A DNA stretch of 64,000 nt from Limisphaerales bacterium. Lineage in GTDB: Bacteria > Verrucomicrobiota > Verrucomicrobiia > Limisphaerales > UBA9464. Of this stretch, positions 3,087 to 58,095 are shown piece by piece (the stretch's first letter is position 1; every line of letters starts with the position of its first letter). The notes under the pieces were generated by a model. That model made no database searches and had not been told where the DNA came from. It saw only the letters and a list, made by a program, of their open reading frames with translations. The position numbers and the translations under genes are program-made. The stretch spans positions 148,506 to 212,505 of the forward strand of contig CBDIPJ010000002.1 in the NCBI GenBank assembly GCA_965283655.1, read 5' to 3'.

Positions 3087-4460
3087 ATGAATCCCTCGGA
3101 CACCATCGCCGCCGTTGCCACGCCACCCGGAAATGGGGGGCTTGCCGTGCTCCGCATTTCCGGTCCTGCAGCCTTCGCCGTCGCGGACGCCTGTTTTCAT
3201 CCCGGTGCTGCCAACAGCCCAAAACCTTCGGGTGCCGCCTCCCATACCGTCCACTACGGACACGTCCGTAACGGAAACACAGTCGTGGACGAAGTCCTTC
3301 TCTCGGTGTTTCGCAGGCCGCGGAGTTTCACGGGGGAGGACACGGTGGAAATCGGATGCCATGGCGGAAGCCTCATCACCCGCCAGGTGCTCCATGCCGT
3401 GCTCTTGGCGGGTGCACGCCATGCCGAACCCGGCGAGTTCACCCGCCGCGCATTCCTCAATGGTCGCCTCGACCTGACACAGGCGGAGGCGGTCGCCGAC
3501 CTCATCCACGCCCGCACCGAACTCGCCGCAACGGCGGCGAATGCCCAGCTCGCCGGCCATCTTGCCCGACAGATCGACCGCCTTCGCGACGACCTCATGG
3601 GCGTCCTCACCCATGTCGAAGCCCACCTCGACTTTCCGGATGAAGACATCCGCCCGGAGACCAATCGGCAACTCCTCGACCGCCTCGATCGCGCGGTAGC
3701 CTTCTGCGGGCGTCTGCTGCGGACCGCACGGGAGGGACGCCTCCTCCGCTCCGGTGCACGCGCCGCCCTCGTCGGCCTTCCGAATGCAGGCAAATCCAGC
3801 CTCCTGAACCTGCTCCTGGGTCACGACCGGGCCATTGTCTCCCCGGTTGCCGGCACCACCCGGGATACCATCGAGGAAGCTGCCGACATCGGCGGCTATC
3901 CCGTGGTCTTTGTCGACACCGCCGGGCTCCGGCATGCCCACGATCCAATCGAAGCCGAGGGAATCCGGCGCAGCGGTGAAGCCGCCCGCCTGGCCGACCT
4001 CCTCCTCGAGGTCGTCGATCTCTCCGAACCGCCGCCAACCACGCTCCCCTTCGAACTGGACGCCATCCCGCCGAACCGACGCATCAGGGTGGGCAACAAG
4101 TGTGACCTGCCCCGCGACCCCGGTTGGGACAAAGGCACGGACACGCCCGTGCTGCGCATCAGTTGTCAGTCGGGCGAAGGCATCCCCGAACTCCGGGAAG
4201 CCCTGCGCCGGCAGCTTCTTTCCGGGGATGAAAGCGTTGAGTCTGCTGGCATCGCCATCAATGCCCGCCATCAGGACGCCCTGCGCCGGACCTCGGATGC
4301 CATCGCCCGGGCGCGCTCCGCGCTCGCCAGCCAGATCGCCCTCGATCTCGTGGCCCTCGACCTCCGCATCGCCGTCGGGGCCATTGGGGAGATTGTCGGA
4401 AAGACGACCACGGAAGACCTGCTCGACCGGATCTTCAGCACCTTCTGCCTGGGGAAGTAG
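3087..4460 (+). CDS. mnmE: tRNA uridine-5-carboxymethylaminomethyl modification GTPase MnmE
   Basis: 457 aa. N-terminal DTIAAVATPPGNGGLAVLRISG, G domain GLPNAGKSSLLN ... DTAG ... NKCD, and the diagnostic C-terminal FCLGK. Confidence 0.95.
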   Translation: MNPSDTIAAVATPPGNGGLAVLRISGPAAFAVADACFHPGAANSPKPSGAASHTVHYGHVRNGNTVVDEVLLSVFRRPRSFTGEDTVEIGCHGGSLITRQVLHAVLLAGARHAEPGEFTRRAFLNGRLDLTQAEAVADLIHARTELAATAANAQLAGHLARQIDRLRDDLMGVLTHVEAHLDFPDEDIRPETNRQLLDRLDRAVAFCGRLLRTAREGRLLRSGARAALVGLPNAGKSSLLNLLLGHDRAIVSPVAGTTRDTIEEAADIGGYPVVFVDTAGLRHAHDPIEAEGIRRSGEAARLADLLLEVVDLSEPPPTTLPFELDAIPPNRRIRVGNKCDLPRDPGWDKGTDTPVLRISCQSGEGIPELREALRRQLLSGDESVESAGIAINARHQDALRRTSDAIARARSALASQIALDLVALDLRIAVGAIGEIVGKTTTEDLLDRIFSTFCLGK

Positions 4461-38353: not shown

Positions 38354-38424
38354 GGGACGGCGATGTTCTCATCGCCTTGGGAAAGGCTTTGGAATGGCGA
38401 CGAGGATGTCGCCACCCCGTTCCG
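38354..38424. repeat. Double-hairpin GC-rich repeat module (ggcgatg...catcgcc plus ggcgacgaggaYgtcgcc)
   Basis: gggacggcgatgttctcatcgcc ... ggaatggcgacgaggatgtcgccaccccgttcc. The same module occurs at about 56087-56155, about 57143-57212 and, inverted, at 58026-58095. Confidence 0.75.
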
Positions 38425-53305: not shown

Positions 53306-54004
53306 CTACCCCCTCAACCGCCTCCAGCGCGCGTAGAACAGCACGAACACGGCCGGTCCGAAGGCCAGCAACATCACGGTCACCCCCATGGTCAGGCCGA
53401 AGAACGTCAGCAATCCCGCGCAACAATCCGTCCGGCCCCGGGCCACGATGTGGGTCGGGACCGCCACCAACAGTTCGAGCACGCTGCCGCGCAGCATCCA
53501 CTTCTGCTGACGTTCCATCAGGGACCGCGGATCCATCCGGCCGCTCCACCGCCAGAACACCACCGCCCACACGACCCACAGGAGGAGCGGCAGACCCGTC
53601 CACAGCAGCCAGTAATCGCCGGGATCATCCTCCGGCGCATCAATAGTCATGAAATACTCCATGCCGCTCAGGATCCCTCCCATCAGCAGGCAACCCATCC
53701 AGAATCCCGTGGCCAGGATGGGCAACCACAGCCCGGAGCGCGACACAGGCCGTCCCACCTGCAACCGCACCGGCACGCGGATCAGCAGGAACTGACTGAT
53801 CAGGACCACACCCAGGAATAGCGGGAAAGGCACGTTCAGGAAAAACTCCCAGGGCATCCGTTCGATCTGCCGAAGCTGGGGGAAGGCCGCCATCAGGAAG
53901 GGCATCGTCATCGTCAGCAACAGGACCAGGTACAACCCGGTCATGATCGCTCCCCAATGGAGCCACGGATACCGCGGCCCCTCATGCGTCGCCTTCTCGG
54001 ACAT
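53306..54004 (-). CDS. Hypothetical integral membrane protein
   Basis: 232 aa starting at an ATG, with at least 5 hydrophobic segments (LYLVLLLTMTMPFLMAAF, FPLFLGVVLISQFLLI, LWLPILATGFWMGCLLMGGIL, LLWTGLPLLLWVVWAVVFW, LLTFFGLTMGVTVMLLAFGPAVFVLF). Confidence 0.65.
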   Translation of the reverse strand: MSEKATHEGPRYPWLHWGAIMTGLYLVLLLTMTMPFLMAAFPQLRQIERMPWEFFLNVPFPLFLGVVLISQFLLIRVPVRLQVGRPVSRSGLWLPILATGFWMGCLLMGGILSGMEYFMTIDAPEDDPGDYWLLWTGLPLLLWVVWAVVFWRWSGRMDPRSLMERQQKWMLRGSVLELLVAVPTHIVARGRTDCCAGLLTFFGLTMGVTVMLLAFGPAVFVLFYARWRRLRG

Positions 54005-54091
54005 GGCTTACAGACTGCCCATCCGCCAAAACTCTCAAACTCCAAACTCCGGACTTTGAAAACCGCGGGTCCTTCCGCCAGCATCCCACGC

Positions 54092-55666
54092 ATGTTCCAC
54101 TCCCTGACTCCCTCCCGGGGCCATCGCGTCGTGCTCTGCACCCTCGCTTCGGCCGGTGCCCTCGTCGGTTCGGCCCTCCACGCCGACGTCCGCCTCCATC
54201 CCCTGTTCACCGACCATTCCGTCTTCCAGCAGGGCAAGCCGGTGCCCGTCTGGGGCTGGGCGGACCCGGGTGAGAAGGTCTCGGTGCAATTCGGCGAGCA
54301 GACCCACGCCACCGTGGCGGACGACCACGGCCGCTGGTCGGTGAACCTGAAGTCCCTCAAGGCCACCGCCGCTCCCAAGACCCTCCATGTCACCGGAAAG
54401 AACGCCCTGCGCGTTGAGGACGTGGTCGTGGGCGAGGTGTGGATCTGCTCCGGCCAGTCCAACATGGAGTGGCCCATGCGCGCGAGCGCCAGCCCCGAGG
54501 CCGACATCCAGGGCAGCGCCAACCCCCTCATCCGCCTTTTCACCGTCCAGAAGAACACGTCCAGCGAACGGCTCTCCAACTTCTCCAACCCCGCCGCCCA
54601 CGCCTGGACCGTCGCCTCGCCGGATTCCGTCCGCGGATTCTCCGCCGTCGGATACTACTTCGGTCGCGACCTGCAGGCCGCCCTCGGCGTTCCCATCGGC
54701 CTCATCCACACCTCCTGGGGCGGCAGCCCGGCCGAGGCCTGGACCAGTCCGCAGACGCTCCGCGAGACCCACGTCTACGCCCGCGACATCCTGCCCAACG
54801 CGGTCAACACCCTCCGCAACCGCAAGACCGCCCGGGCCAAGTGGGAAACCGACGCCGCCGCGGCCACCGCCGCCGGCAAGCCCGTTCCCGGCAAACCCTT
54901 CTCCGGGTGGCTCCCCAGCGATCTCTACAACGCCATGATCGAACCGCTGCTGCCGTACGCCATCGGCGGCGCCATCTGGTATCAGGGCGAATCCAACGCC
55001 GGCCGCGCCTGGCAGTACCGCAGCCTCTTCGCCGACATGATCACCGATTGGCGGCAGGCCTTCTGCCAGGGAGATTTCCCCTTCCTCGCCGTCCAACTCG
55101 CCCCGTGGGACAAGAACCGCAAGCGTTCGATCGAGGACATCACCAAGGAACCCGGCGAAAGCGACTGGGCTGAACTCCGCGAGGCGCAGAATTACGCCAC
55201 CGAGGTCCTTCCCAAGGTCGGCGTCGCCGTCATCACGGACGTGGGCGACAAGGATGACATCCACCCGAACCAGAAGGCTCCCGTCGGAGCCCGTCTCGCC
55301 CTGCTGGCGCAAAAGATCGGCTACGGCAAGCGCGTCACCGCCGAAGGCCCCGTCTACCACTCGAAGGTCGTCGCCGACGGCAAGGTCTACCTGAACTTCA
55401 CCTCGCTTGCCGGTGGCATGAAGACCAGCGACGGCGGCGCCCTCAAGGGCTTCTCCATCGCCGGCAAGGACCGCAAGTGGCACTGGGCGACCGCCGAGTT
55501 CCGCGGCCCCAACCAGATTGTCGTTTCCTGCCCCGCCGTCGCCGAACCCCTGGCCGTGCGCTACGGATGGGCCGACTTCCCTGTCGTCAACCTCGCCAAT
55601 GGCGCCGGCCTGCCCGCGTCGCCCTTCCGCACCGACGACTGGCCCGCGATCACCAACAAGCCCTGA
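54092..55666 (+). CDS. Sialate O-acetylesterase-like carbohydrate esterase (SGNH/DUF303 type)
   Basis: Signal MFHSLTPSRGHRVVLCTLASAGALVGSALHA, then VPVWGWADPGEKVSV ... FGEVWICSGQSNMEWPM (GQSNM active-site motif) ... IWYQGESN ... GDKDDIHP. Confidence 0.85.
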   Translation: MFHSLTPSRGHRVVLCTLASAGALVGSALHADVRLHPLFTDHSVFQQGKPVPVWGWADPGEKVSVQFGEQTHATVADDHGRWSVNLKSLKATAAPKTLHVTGKNALRVEDVVVGEVWICSGQSNMEWPMRASASPEADIQGSANPLIRLFTVQKNTSSERLSNFSNPAAHAWTVASPDSVRGFSAVGYYFGRDLQAALGVPIGLIHTSWGGSPAEAWTSPQTLRETHVYARDILPNAVNTLRNRKTARAKWETDAAAATAAGKPVPGKPFSGWLPSDLYNAMIEPLLPYAIGGAIWYQGESNAGRAWQYRSLFADMITDWRQAFCQGDFPFLAVQLAPWDKNRKRSIEDITKEPGESDWAELREAQNYATEVLPKVGVAVITDVGDKDDIHPNQKAPVGARLALLAQKIGYGKRVTAEGPVYHSKVVADGKVYLNFTSLAGGMKTSDGGALKGFSIAGKDRKWHWATAEFRGPNQIVVSCPAVAEPLAVRYGWADFPVVNLANGAGLPASPFRTDDWPAITNKP

Positions 55667-55970
55667 GCCGGGCGTTCTGTCCCACGCGAAGCAGGGCTGC
55701 GGCAATTCCCTCCCCTGCGCGGCTTGGCGGCTTTTGAGGATCCGCAGCCTCACCTCCCTTGGCCCCTGCGTTCTGTCTCACGCAAAGACGCCAAGACGCA
55801 AAGCAGGCAAGAACCACCGTGTGGGCGGTCAGGAATCCGAACGTTCCAGTCTGCCCGGCAGCCTTCTCCATAAGCCACGAGCCGTGGCCCCAGGTGCGGA
55901 GCACCGACAGACGATAGCCCAGTGCGTCAGCGCTGGGTTCCATTCCCCAAAAGAAAACCCAGCCCCGGCA

Positions 55971-56168
55971 GGGGCGACAGAGCCCTCCTGTCCGCAAGCC
56001 CACCGACATCCGGCCGTGCCTCCAGCACCTGACAGCACGCAGGAACGACAATCGGAAAAGCCGCGAAGCCACAAAGCCGCCAAGGGGACGGCGATGTCCA
56101 CATCGCGCCGAGAGAGGCTTCGGAACGGCGACGAGGACGTCGCCTCCCCGTTCCGAGCGGGGGCAGTG
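55971..56168 (+). repeat. Left copy of a ~198-bp direct repeat bracketing vapBC
   Basis: ggggcgacagagccctcctgtccgcaagcccaccgacatccggccgtgcctccagcacctgaca ... cggaacggcgacgaggacgtcgcctccccgttccgagcggg. By eye this is close to 95% identical to 57028-57226. Confidence 0.9.
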
Positions 56169-56249
56169 TCAAGACGCGCCCGCCCACTGGCCCACTGCCT
56201 TTCCCCATCAGTGCGTTGACGGATGGATCCGAGGCATCATGATGCTCGG

Positions 56250-56495
56250 ATGCGAACCACTTTGACGCTGGATCCGGACGTTGCCGCCAAAGCTCGGAAG
56301 GGCGCAGCCCGATTGCACAAGCCCTTCAAGGAGGTGATCAATGCCGCCTTGCGCGTCGGACTGGATGCGATCCTCAAGCCACCCGCAGCCAAACCCTACC
56401 GGACAACGCCGCGGCCGATGGGGCTACGCGCAGGCTTCAACTACGACAACATCTCCGAGTTGATCGCCGCCGCAGAGGGGGAGGACCATTCGTGA
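56250..56495 (+). CDS. vapB: Type II antitoxin, VapB-like
   Basis: MRTTLTLDPDVAAKARKGAARLHKPFKEVINAALRVGL... Its stop overlaps the toxin GTG (GTGA at 56492-56495). Confidence 0.8.
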   Translation: MRTTLTLDPDVAAKARKGAARLHKPFKEVINAALRVGLDAILKPPAAKPYRTTPRPMGLRAGFNYDNISELIAAAEGEDHS

Positions 56496-56923
56496 TTCTC
56501 GTCGATGCCAATCTGCTCCTCTACGCCGAGGACAGTCTCTCGGAGCAACACACGAGAGCGCGGGTCTGGTGGGATGAACAACTGAGCGGATCCGAGCCCG
56601 TGGGGCTCTGCTGGCCGGTCATCAATGCCTATATCCGCATCGGGACCAACGCCCGTCTCCACCGACGACCACTCACCCTCAAGGAAGCCACGGAACGTGT
56701 GGACGAATGGTTCAACCAACCGTGCGTGTGCATCCTCCAACCGACCGATCAGCACTGGGCCATCTTCCAGAAAATGCTGTCGGCGGGAAATGCGGTGGGC
56801 AACCTGGTTTCCGACGCCCATCTTGCCGCGCTCGCCGTGGAACACAACTGCGTGCTTTGCTCCACAGACGCAGATTTTTCCCGCTTCCGCGGACTCAAGT
56901 GGAAGAACCCGTTGGCGGAGTAA
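56492..56923 (+). CDS. vapC: Type II toxin, PIN-domain ribonuclease VapC
   Basis: (M)ILVDANLLLYA (first acidic residue) ... LVSDAHLAALAVEHNCVLCSTDADFSRFRGLKWKNPL, the classical PIN layout. 143 aa. Confidence 0.9.
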   Translation: MILVDANLLLYAEDSLSEQHTRARVWWDEQLSGSEPVGLCWPVINAYIRIGTNARLHRRPLTLKEATERVDEWFNQPCVCILQPTDQHWAIFQKMLSAGNAVGNLVSDAHLAALAVEHNCVLCSTDADFSRFRGLKWKNPLAE

Positions 56924-57027
56924 GTTACGGATGAATCACTGGCATCCATTCCTGCACTAAAGTCGAAGCTGAAGGCCGAAATCCGCCACTGAATATTTCC
57001 CCACCCGATCCGGGACGCTCTCCCTAA

Positions 57028-57226
57028 GGGGCGACAGAGCCCTCCTGTCCGCAAGCCCACCGACATCCGGCCGTGCCTCCAGCACCTGACAACACGGAGG
57101 AACGACAATCGGAAAAGCCGCGAAGCCTCAAAGCCGCCAAGAGGGGCGGCGATGTCCACATCGCCCTGAGAGAGGCTTCGGAACGGCGACGAGGACGTCG
57201 CCTCCCCGTTCCGAGCGGGTGCAGTG
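57028..57226 (+). repeat. Right copy of the ~198-bp direct repeat bracketing vapBC
   Basis: Aligned by eye with 55971-56168; I see about 8-9 differences including one 1-nt indel. Confidence 0.9.
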
Positions 57227-57362
57227 CCCGGATGAGTCCCGAGCCAGCGCCAATTCCGATTCCGTTTTGCGTCTTCTTTCGATTTTTGCGGCTAACCTTC
57301 TCCGCGCTGACGCGCCTCTGCCATCTGCGGACTCAAGCGCCGTCTTTGGGGTCAGTCCATGG

Positions 57363-57965
57363 TCAGGCTCGTGACACGGGCCATTCCCCCGGCGCATTCC
57401 AGTTGGCCAGCTGTGGCTCCTGAGAGATTTCCAGCGCCCACTCCCGCATCCAGCCTCCGCGCACCCCCGCATCCACAAGGCGCCGCGGCGACCATTCCTC
57501 GGTCGCCTTCCACCCCGACACCTCCGCCCGCGCCATAGCCACGGGCAACACAGCACAGAGCGGCTCGCGTCCGCGCTGCGTGACCGGGATCACCCCGCGA
57601 CCGTCGGCACAACGCTTCCGCAATGTGCGCAGGAAATCCGCGTCCAACGCCGGCAGATCGACCGCCAGCACCAACAACCACGCAGCCGTTGTCCGCTCCA
57701 GCACCTGTCGGATCCCTTCCATCGGCCCGGCGTCCGCGGTGGCATCCTCCACCCAGCACGCGCCGTTCCCGATCTCCGGATAGGCCGATGCCTTTCCCTG
57801 CGCCACCGACACCCAGCATTCGCTGACCCCGGTTTCACGCAGCAACCGCACCTGCCGCACCAACAACAGCTCGCCCCCCACGCACAGTCGCGCCTTGTCG
57901 CAGCCCATCCGACGCGACCGTCCACCCGCCAGGACCAATCCGGCGAAATCCACCGTCCCCGTCAT
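57363..57965 (-). CDS. mobA: Molybdenum cofactor guanylyltransferase
   Basis: [27 protein letters not shown] ... LVLAVDLP are MobA signature motifs. The ATG at 57965 was chosen because the longer ORF (to 58055) extends into a repeat. Confidence 0.85.
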
Positions 57966-58025
57966 GCCTGCGGCGCCCTGCATCGCGGACAGGCTGGCAA
58001 ACCGAACCTGCGCAAGGCGAGCAGA

Positions 58026-58095
58026 GGAACGGGGAGGCGACGTCCTCGTCGCCACGGCAAAGCCAATCCCAAGGCGATGAGGACATCGCCGCCCC
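58026..58095. repeat. Inverted partial copy of the double-hairpin GC-rich module
   Basis: ggaacggggaggcgacgtcctcgtcgcc ... ggcgatgaggacatcgccgcccc. The first part is the reverse complement of ggcgacgaggacgtcgcctccccgttcc seen at 56.1 and 57.2 kb. Confidence 0.8.

Follow-up and report, generated by a model that had tools for sequence, protein, structure and literature searches.

The subject of this study is a vapBC toxin–antitoxin gene pair in a window of 64,000 nucleotides (nt) from a Limisphaerales bacterium of the phylum Verrucomicrobiota (NCBI assembly GCA_965283655.1, contig CBDIPJ010000002.1, forward-strand positions 148,506 to 212,505); positions given below without a contig name refer to this window. 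The pair lies between two directly repeated copies, A and B, of a non-coding sequence of about 200 nt (R), and it is probably a repeat-bounded accessory cassette that is gained or lost by general homologous recombination between these copies. In natural populations this single locus shows an occupied site, an exact empty site and a closed form of one repeat period, and its chimeric repeats record crossovers. The movement of chromosomal toxin–antitoxin pairs without a mobility gene is poorly documented. The window belongs to contig C2 of a metagenome-assembled genome (G000) of 5.7 Mb with 64% G+C, the congeners of which are labelled as Verrucomicrobiales and Limisphaerales metagenome-assembled genomes from ponds and similar waters.

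The vapBC pair and its flanking direct repeats

The antitoxin gene vapB (56250-56495, plus strand, 81 aa) is followed by the toxin gene vapC (56492-56923, plus strand, 143 aa), with which it overlaps in a GTGA at 56492-56495. VapC is a PIN-domain protein matching TIGR00028 with 129 bits (cut-off 73.6) and PF01850 with 38 bits (2e-9). The match of VapB to PF09957 reaches 16.8 bits, which is below the cut-off of 23.4 and makes this family assignment weak. Judged by its sequence, the pair has the make-up of a type II VapBC system, i.e. a predicted PIN-domain toxin together with a small upstream antitoxin gene that is translationally coupled to it. Directly before the ATG of vapB (56216-56249, plus strand) there is a promoter-like site, TTGACG-16-CATGAT at 56216-56243, and the overlapping near-palindrome CCGAGGCATCATGATGCTCGG is likely the VapB operator. 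The left edge of the conserved vapBC module is position 56211 in all alleles, a border common to three metagenome contigs (L057-L059) and to a copy that the congener G008 carries at another locus. Downstream of vapC follows, on the minus strand, a stump of a lost extracytoplasmic function (ECF) sigma / anti-sigma gene (56932-57026) that comprises its first ~90 nt and start region. This sigma gene is whole in the relative G014 (491 aa) and in the metagenome contigs L056 (467 aa) and L049.

Alignment confirms the preliminary description of an intact vapBC pair between same-orientation direct repeats of about 198 bp. Copy A extends from 55970 to 56168 and copy B from 57027 to 57226, both on the plus strand; the location given before (55971-56168 and 57028-57226) was thus correct and only the left end was one base off. 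The two copies (199 and 200 nt) differ by seven substitutions and one indel in 200 columns (~96% alike), in good agreement with the eight to nine differences counted earlier by eye, and their longest identical runs measure 65, 52 and 30 nt. Their starts are 1057 nt apart and the insert of 858 nt contains vapB, vapC and the gene stump only. Each copy consists of a left part of 115 nt (R-left; 55970-56084 in A, 57027-57141 in B) and of the inner part of a miniature inverted-repeat transposable element (MITE) that starts at 56085 in A and covers 57143-57226 in B. Both GC-rich hairpins quoted in the preliminary description are found in A and in B, and jointly they form one long hairpin (-48 kcal/mol, z = -3.3).

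As a full unit R is present in two copies genome-wide, both at this locus, and its internal junction is likewise found only here. A genome search for further copies of the supposed 198-bp element gave none beyond A and B, hence it is not ubiquitous, and no other cassette lies between pairs of R as there is no other copy in the genome. Since the left 115 nt have no other match above ~75% anywhere in the 5.7-Mb genome, a chance origin of the likeness between A and B is excluded. Both copies share the internal junction and are therefore copies of each other and not independent insertions. A search of Rfam gave no match for R itself, and a 31-mer of R-left had no exact match in the collection of species-representative genomes.

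Occupied, empty and closed alleles

Further contigs of the locus were found via exact look-ups of the VapC and VapB proteins and a scan with the R-left 31-mer, and the alleles were read from the assembled metagenome contigs, which are 93-99% identical. For the run and assembly accessions of these contigs no paper was found in a literature search. The variable spacer is bordered on the left by a SASA-esterase gene (53957-55666) and on the right by a MobA-like gene (57363-58055); the segment between copy B and the stop of the latter gene (57228-57362, no strand assigned) is called the tail.

Occupied alleles with two repeats are not restricted to the window genome. Contig L050 (ENA ERZ17174968) reads X, R-left, vapBC, stump, R, tail and MobA, its copy A being devoid of the MITE part. 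In L056 (a 31-kb contig, JGI 3300077578) and L049 copy A is followed by vapBC, the whole sigma gene, the stump region and a second repeat (B') that is more diverged (88-91% identical, with a 26-nt gap). As A and B' flank an intact sigma gene in these two contigs, the two repeats predate the loss of this gene. A comparison with the relatives G005 and G014 had suggested that copy B arose by duplication recently and in the window genome alone, but its presence in L050, L056 and L049 overturns this idea. In L057-L059 the end of the SASA-esterase gene is joined directly to window position 56211 and vapBC begins 10 nt after the SASA stop.

The single-repeat form expected after excision exists in precise form in two metagenome contigs, L061 and L062 (JGI Ga0172373 and Ga0172372; 21 and 15 kb), which read SASA, an Acido-Lenti-1-type repeat, one R, tail and MobA. 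Neither vapBC nor the stump is present, the tail follows directly after the single R, and at either border of the repeat the allele is accurate to the single base. Over 2981 nt both contigs are collinear with an in-silico join of A and B of the window (93.8% identity, 3 gap positions). JGI has no gene calls in the 640-nt gap of the empty allele. A look-up of its MobA-like protein is uninformative, as it returned nothing but this JGI contig again and a single short Logan contig. The preliminary description had offered, as an alternative, the insertion of the toxin–antitoxin pair into a pre-existing tandem pair of repeats; this found no support, as no allele with two adjacent copies and no cassette was seen.

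A third form is closed. Contig L051 (ENA ERZ17175165, assembled with MEGAHIT at k=141) has an exact terminal overlap of 141 nt and represents a closed cycle of 957 nt, which comprises vapBC, the stump, R-left and a 13-nt linker and equals exactly the A-to-B period of L050. The same 957-nt cycle is seen in the Logan contigs L052 and L053 (k=31) with terminal overlaps of 30 and 28 nt. The identical stretch between A and B in L050 measures only ~72-85 nt and no run reaches 141 nt; because of this, repeat collapse at k=141 cannot create the cycle of L051.

Empty allele and cycles could nevertheless be complementary mis-resolutions of one collapsed direct repeat, with only the occupied form being real. 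L052 and L053 would fit such an assembly artefact: they were built at a k shorter than the identical repeat stretch, and they adjoin high-copy repeats (families of 136 and ~500 copies) the edges of which may be pruned, so both may be graph artefacts. Moreover, L052 and the linear contig L050, which probably stem from one sample, share a haplotype. L051, however, closes at a k above any identical run of A and B, and two samples yielded the empty allele, in contigs 15 and 21 kb long; its crossover, compared with the L056 parent, falls within at most ~26 identical bases. In addition, the invariant VapB, whose identical sequence is on record in nine other contigs, is encoded by no recorded contig from the two samples with the empty allele. 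Altogether, an artefact is improbable, and L051 is the sole strong evidence for the cycle.

Chimeric repeats and crossover points

The single repeat of the empty allele is composed of both copies. Its first 84 nt show 3 differences to copy A of L056 and 40 to B' of the same contig, while its MITE part carries the B'-specific states GGGGA, CCTCATC and GCATTG together with the right junction of B with the tail. The repeat of the cycle has the left junction of B with the stump, then the right-hand variant of A, AACAAGAATC, and finally the linker of A into vapB. Empty allele (left A, right B) and cycle (the opposite chimera) correspond to the two reciprocal outcomes of a single crossover between the repeats.

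The crossover interval of the cycle lies within 55983-56054 and that of the empty allele to the right of ~56060, i.e. they do not overlap. None of the seven PF00589 hits of the genome and none of its four PF01797 (Y1 transposase) hits is found on contig C2, which bears out the earlier statement that there is no recombinase gene nearby. Since the crossover intervals differ and contig C2 has neither integrase nor Y1 transposase, general homologous recombination is likely. Across strains, variants of R have also changed places between the positions of A and B. For example, AAG is found in A of L050 and in B' of L056, and copy B of L050 is identical to copy A of the window over 115 nt. This swapping points to repeated exchange or conversion.

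We infer RecA-type recombination as the agent and the physical existence of the cycle, be it as a molecule or as an array, and any direction given to the events is likewise inferred. The cassette would consist of vapBC, its promoter and the sigma-gene stump of 95 nt, bounded by two direct copies of R. R would have no recombination function of its own, and A and B would serve as homology arms. A crossover between A and B would remove the cassette and leave one chimeric R in the chromosome and the other chimera on a circle, unequal exchange between sister chromosomes would give tandem copies, and in the reverse (Campbell-type) reaction a circle would re-enter a site with a single R. The earlier suggestion that the pair could be excised or duplicated through homologous recombination between the repeats is now supported by the single-repeat allele, the closed cycle and their opposite chimerism.

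With regard to direction, vapBC and the sigma gene are found at the same locus in both clades, including a sister clade (G014, G005, L057) without copy B, and this would favour loss. On the other hand, B' of L056 is similar in its left part to what clade II has upstream of vapB, and this would favour the entry of a circle into an empty site. A more far-reaching version, in which the 957-bp unit of vapBC and one repeat is a recombinase-free selfish cassette that enters by homology, is amplified through its repeats and leaves as a circle, much as Kobayashi's group proposed for restriction-modification genes, is rather unlikely. If true, a homology arm made of repeats dispersed at hundreds of sites (a MITE and a repeat linked to Acido-Lenti-1) would offer many possible landing pads, and the k=141 cycle near chromosomal depth would be a persistent circle or a long tandem array.

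Several observations weigh against a cassette exchanged between A and B, in addition to the doubts about L052 and L053 mentioned above. The unbranched cycle L051 is near chromosomal depth (multiplicity 18; L050: 17), which is hard to explain by a non-replicating circle of 957 bp. Such a depth would call for a circle that coexists with a chromosome already emptied of the cassette, or for a rarer strain with a tandem array of many copies. The window's own genome shows the occupied form only. Copy A occurs with or without its MITE part depending on the strain, and B' in L056 and L049 is older and more diverged, so that the history is more tangled than one event. Finally, G005, G014 and L057-L059 hold vapBC at the locus without copy B.

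The locus in related genomes

Among the species-representative genomes G005 and G014 (~94% identity) contain vapB or vapBC at the same site between the SASA-esterase and MobA-like genes. Upstream of vapB they have 77 nt of R-left only; the MITE part and copy B are absent, and homology to both genomes ends exactly at 57027, the start of copy B. In G014 a glycosyltransferase (GT2) gene is located upstream of vapBC and the ECF sigma / anti-sigma gene downstream. G005 has kept vapB at 96.5% identity but has lost nearly the whole of vapC and the greater part of the sigma gene (locus L041, G005:C708, ~3926-3995 in window orientation). This can be read as toxin–antitoxin decay with the toxin lost first, and the presence of vapB without vapC may give an indirect hint on the toxicity of VapC and its neutralisation by VapB. 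The more distant congeners G013 and G008 (~80%) have a P-loop, APS-kinase-like gene at the site and no vapBC there, and no direct repeats flank the vapBC homologues of G008 and G035. The relatives thus show differing arrangements at the locus and not one common layout.

Such diversity raises the question whether copy B is only an incidental scar, i.e. a local segmental duplication or a gene-conversion tract in a hypervariable spacer, and whether the allele without vapBC either goes back to some other deletion or never held the pair, the repeats having no share in gain or loss. The genome holds ~250 direct-repeat pairs of at least 120 nt with at least 88% identity and at most 8 kb apart, many of which are tandem arrays; it is unusually rich in local repeats. 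Both spacers flanking vapBC are mosaics of dispersed repeats beyond R, and G005, G014 and L057-L059 show indels without repeats that affect the GT2 gene, the sigma gene, vapC (deletion) and the joining of SASA and vapBC. A scar would not account, however, for the base-exact borders of the repeat in the empty allele and for its chimerism of the expected kind, nor for a cycle of exactly one repeat period with the opposite chimerism. We therefore give this explanation a low probability and retain recombination between A and B as the preferred one.

Composition of the repeat

The supposed 198-bp element is real as a repeat, but two dispersed repeat families meet in it and it is not one element. 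R-left has ~7 relatives in the genome at 70-78% identity, each of which runs leftwards into an Acido-Lenti-1-type repeat; these partial relatives lie within non-coding repeat arrays and, by inspection of open reading frames (ORFs) only, near no convincing genes. At copy A such an Acido-Lenti-1-type repeat adjoins directly (55880-55969, minus strand). Its Rfam match (RF01687, 55892-55937, 46.3 bits against a gathering score of 37) lies outside the duplicated segment, and the repeat is attached to copy A and not to copy B. The stretch 55880-55950 is covered by ~136 genome copies.

The right 84 nt of R match ~494-517 genome sites, which are distributed over both strands. An alignment of 191 copies, flanks included, gave a consensus of 135 nt with perfect terminal inverted repeats of 23 nt, GGGCGCATCTTGACACTGCCCCC ... 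GGGGGCAGTGTCAAGATGCGCCC, and, further inside, a pair of inverted 18-nt palindromes. There are 517 core sites and 47 complete copies of 120-139 nt. Target duplications of 8-9 bp are exact in eight complete copies, and several more have one mismatch (by eye). Because of its terminal inverted repeats and these flanking duplications the 135-nt family that carries the hairpin part of R is a MITE. Copy A contains MITE positions ~39-135 without 1-38, its right terminal inverted repeat running to 56182. Copy B contains positions ~39-122 and is devoid of both 1-38 and 123-135, the terminal repeat being cut after GCAGTG. The portion shared within R is thus ~39-122, and both parts are truncated and in the same orientation.

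The left border of the duplicated segment falls inside a hairpin (55962-55975) and the right border inside the MITE terminal repeat. R is therefore the copied junction of two unrelated dispersed repeats and not a mobile unit, which means that what looks like the repeat pair of a mobile element can be such a junction.

These properties bear on the possibility that the cassette is moved by an enzyme encoded elsewhere, be it an integron integrase acting on attC-like sites, a Y1 transposase of the RAYT type (REP-associated tyrosine transposase, REP standing for repetitive extragenic palindromic) acting on REP-like hairpins, or the transposase of the MITE parent acting on a MITE-flanked composite. 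Strong hairpins are present at the repeat ends, the genome has four Y1 transposase homologues and seven tyrosine recombinases, and one of the Y1 genes, located on contig C15, has inverted copies of Acido-Lenti-1 on either side. Yet crossovers occurred at different places inside R with no fixed site, and no transposase-competent ends bracket the cassette, as the left MITE terminal repeat is missing in both copies and the right one is incomplete in B. The repeat borders lie inside hairpins and are not element ends, the link between Y1 and Acido-Lenti-1 is absent in the orthologues of 11 related genomes, and contig C2 has no such gene. Enzyme-driven mobility is accordingly the least probable of the explanations considered here and highly unlikely, and homologous recombination between A and B remains preferred.

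Comparison with known systems

For restriction-modification gene complexes, insertion with long target duplication was reportedly noted in 2000 by Nobusato et al. This mode of insertion is described for such genes by Furuta, Abe and Kobayashi 2010 (PMC2853133), who look for direct repeats of more than 30 bp, for a relative whose site holds just one copy of the repeat, alignable with both flanking copies, and for an insert of less than 20 kb without mobility gene; in their cases the flanking repeats are 46-420 bp long, and amplification through the repeats followed by release is proposed. The vapBC locus resembles these cases in having an addiction-type gene pair as a short insert without mobility gene between long direct repeats (200 bp) and a related site (L061/L062) with one R between the same flanks, and the one-period cycle fits the proposed amplification and release. 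It differs in three respects: the cargo is a type II toxin–antitoxin pair and not a restriction-modification system, the duplicated sequence is a junction of dispersed families and not a unique host target, and a sister clade has vapBC at the locus without a second repeat. Nevertheless, the locus is probably a further case of the pattern, which would thereby be extended to a vapBC pair in (freshwater) Verrucomicrobiota.

Chromosomal integrons also contain small toxin–antitoxin cassettes between same-orientation, hairpin-forming non-coding repeats, and their excision gives circles. In contrast with them, the present locus has no integron integrase on its contig and no array, its repeat is a mosaic of elements dispersed on both strands, and the position of the crossover varies, unlike in recombination between two attC sites (no attC model was run). 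The absence of all seven PF00589 hits from contig C2 and the non-overlapping crossover intervals do not fit an integron gene cassette.

Short dispersed repeats are well known to give rise to tandem duplications and deletions in a RecA-dependent manner, e.g. in the REP-mediated duplications of Salmonella. There too, non-coding dispersed repeats in direct orientation serve as substrates, and deletion with a circle or tandem duplication results in chimeric joins. Here, however, the substrate is a locally duplicated mosaic of 200 nt and not a pair of independent family members, and the unit carries a toxin–antitoxin pair whose loss should be counter-selected.

In MITE-flanked composite units, such as the MITE-bracketed integrons of Acinetobacter, MITE parts are also found on both sides of an accessory segment. 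At the vapBC locus these parts are truncated and point the same way, and the outer terminal repeats needed by a transposase are missing. With no intact outward-facing ends (A without 1-38; B without 1-38 and 123-135) the locus does not fit a MITE-flanked composite transposon. REP or REPIN elements with a RAYT do not fit either, since none of the four Y1 genes has a MITE core within 3 kb and Acido-Lenti-1 copies flank the C15 gene only and none of its orthologues.

Neighbourhood and dispersed repeat families

The genes around the cassette encode the esterase, the MobA-like transferase, an RF-1-domain protein and a DUF1365 protein. Within the genus, the spacer that separates the SASA-esterase gene from the MobA-like gene is a hotspot of variation. 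In the window genome only, GCCCACTG (56183-56198) is a tandem duplicate directly after the MITE terminal repeat; it is single-copy in L049, L050, L056, G005 and G014. The tail contains a further dispersed repeat of ~50 nt (~57257-57307) with ~40 genome copies, which elsewhere forms tandem arrays with periods of ~256 and 287 nt (C1:225565-227145, C16:57244-58179).

In the genome at least 147 hits of RF01687 exceed the gathering score, many of them in head-to-head pairs ~62 nt apart or in tandem arrays with periods of ~208 and 505 nt (e.g. G000:C1:7036-8266, C3:186709-188832, C3:249229-250129). Because of this number and arrangement Acido-Lenti-1 behaves here as a dispersed repeat rather than as a single sRNA gene. 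The Y1 (IS200-like) transposase homologue on contig C15 (358 aa, C15:102744-103820; locus L063, G000:C15:101802-105393) is bracketed by inverted Acido-Lenti-1 copies at 102604-102649 (minus) and 103858-103903 (plus) with further copies outward, an arrangement with a RAYT/REP-like look. That Acido-Lenti-1 is the REP of this RAYT was rejected since no copies were found near its orthologues (97% to 52% identical) in 11 related genomes.

The MITE is found in the window at 38354-38424, 56085-56182, 57143-57226 and 58026-58095. The last of these, a third core copy next to the cassette, is inverted (minus strand), lies between the MobA-like and RF-1-domain genes outside the cassette and gives a chance-level Rfam miRNA hit only. 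A search for an autonomous insertion sequence with the MITE terminal repeats yielded pairs 0.6-4.5 kb apart that hold ordinary genes, with no transposase-like ORF seen by eye (no Pfam scan). Two segments of 3139 nt (C27:55642-58780 and C5:311037-314175) start and end with MITE terminal repeats, have identical outer flanks and enclose an ORF of ~890 aa; they represent either a segmental duplication or assembly redundancy. The MITE also occurs in the congeners G005, G008, G013 and G014.

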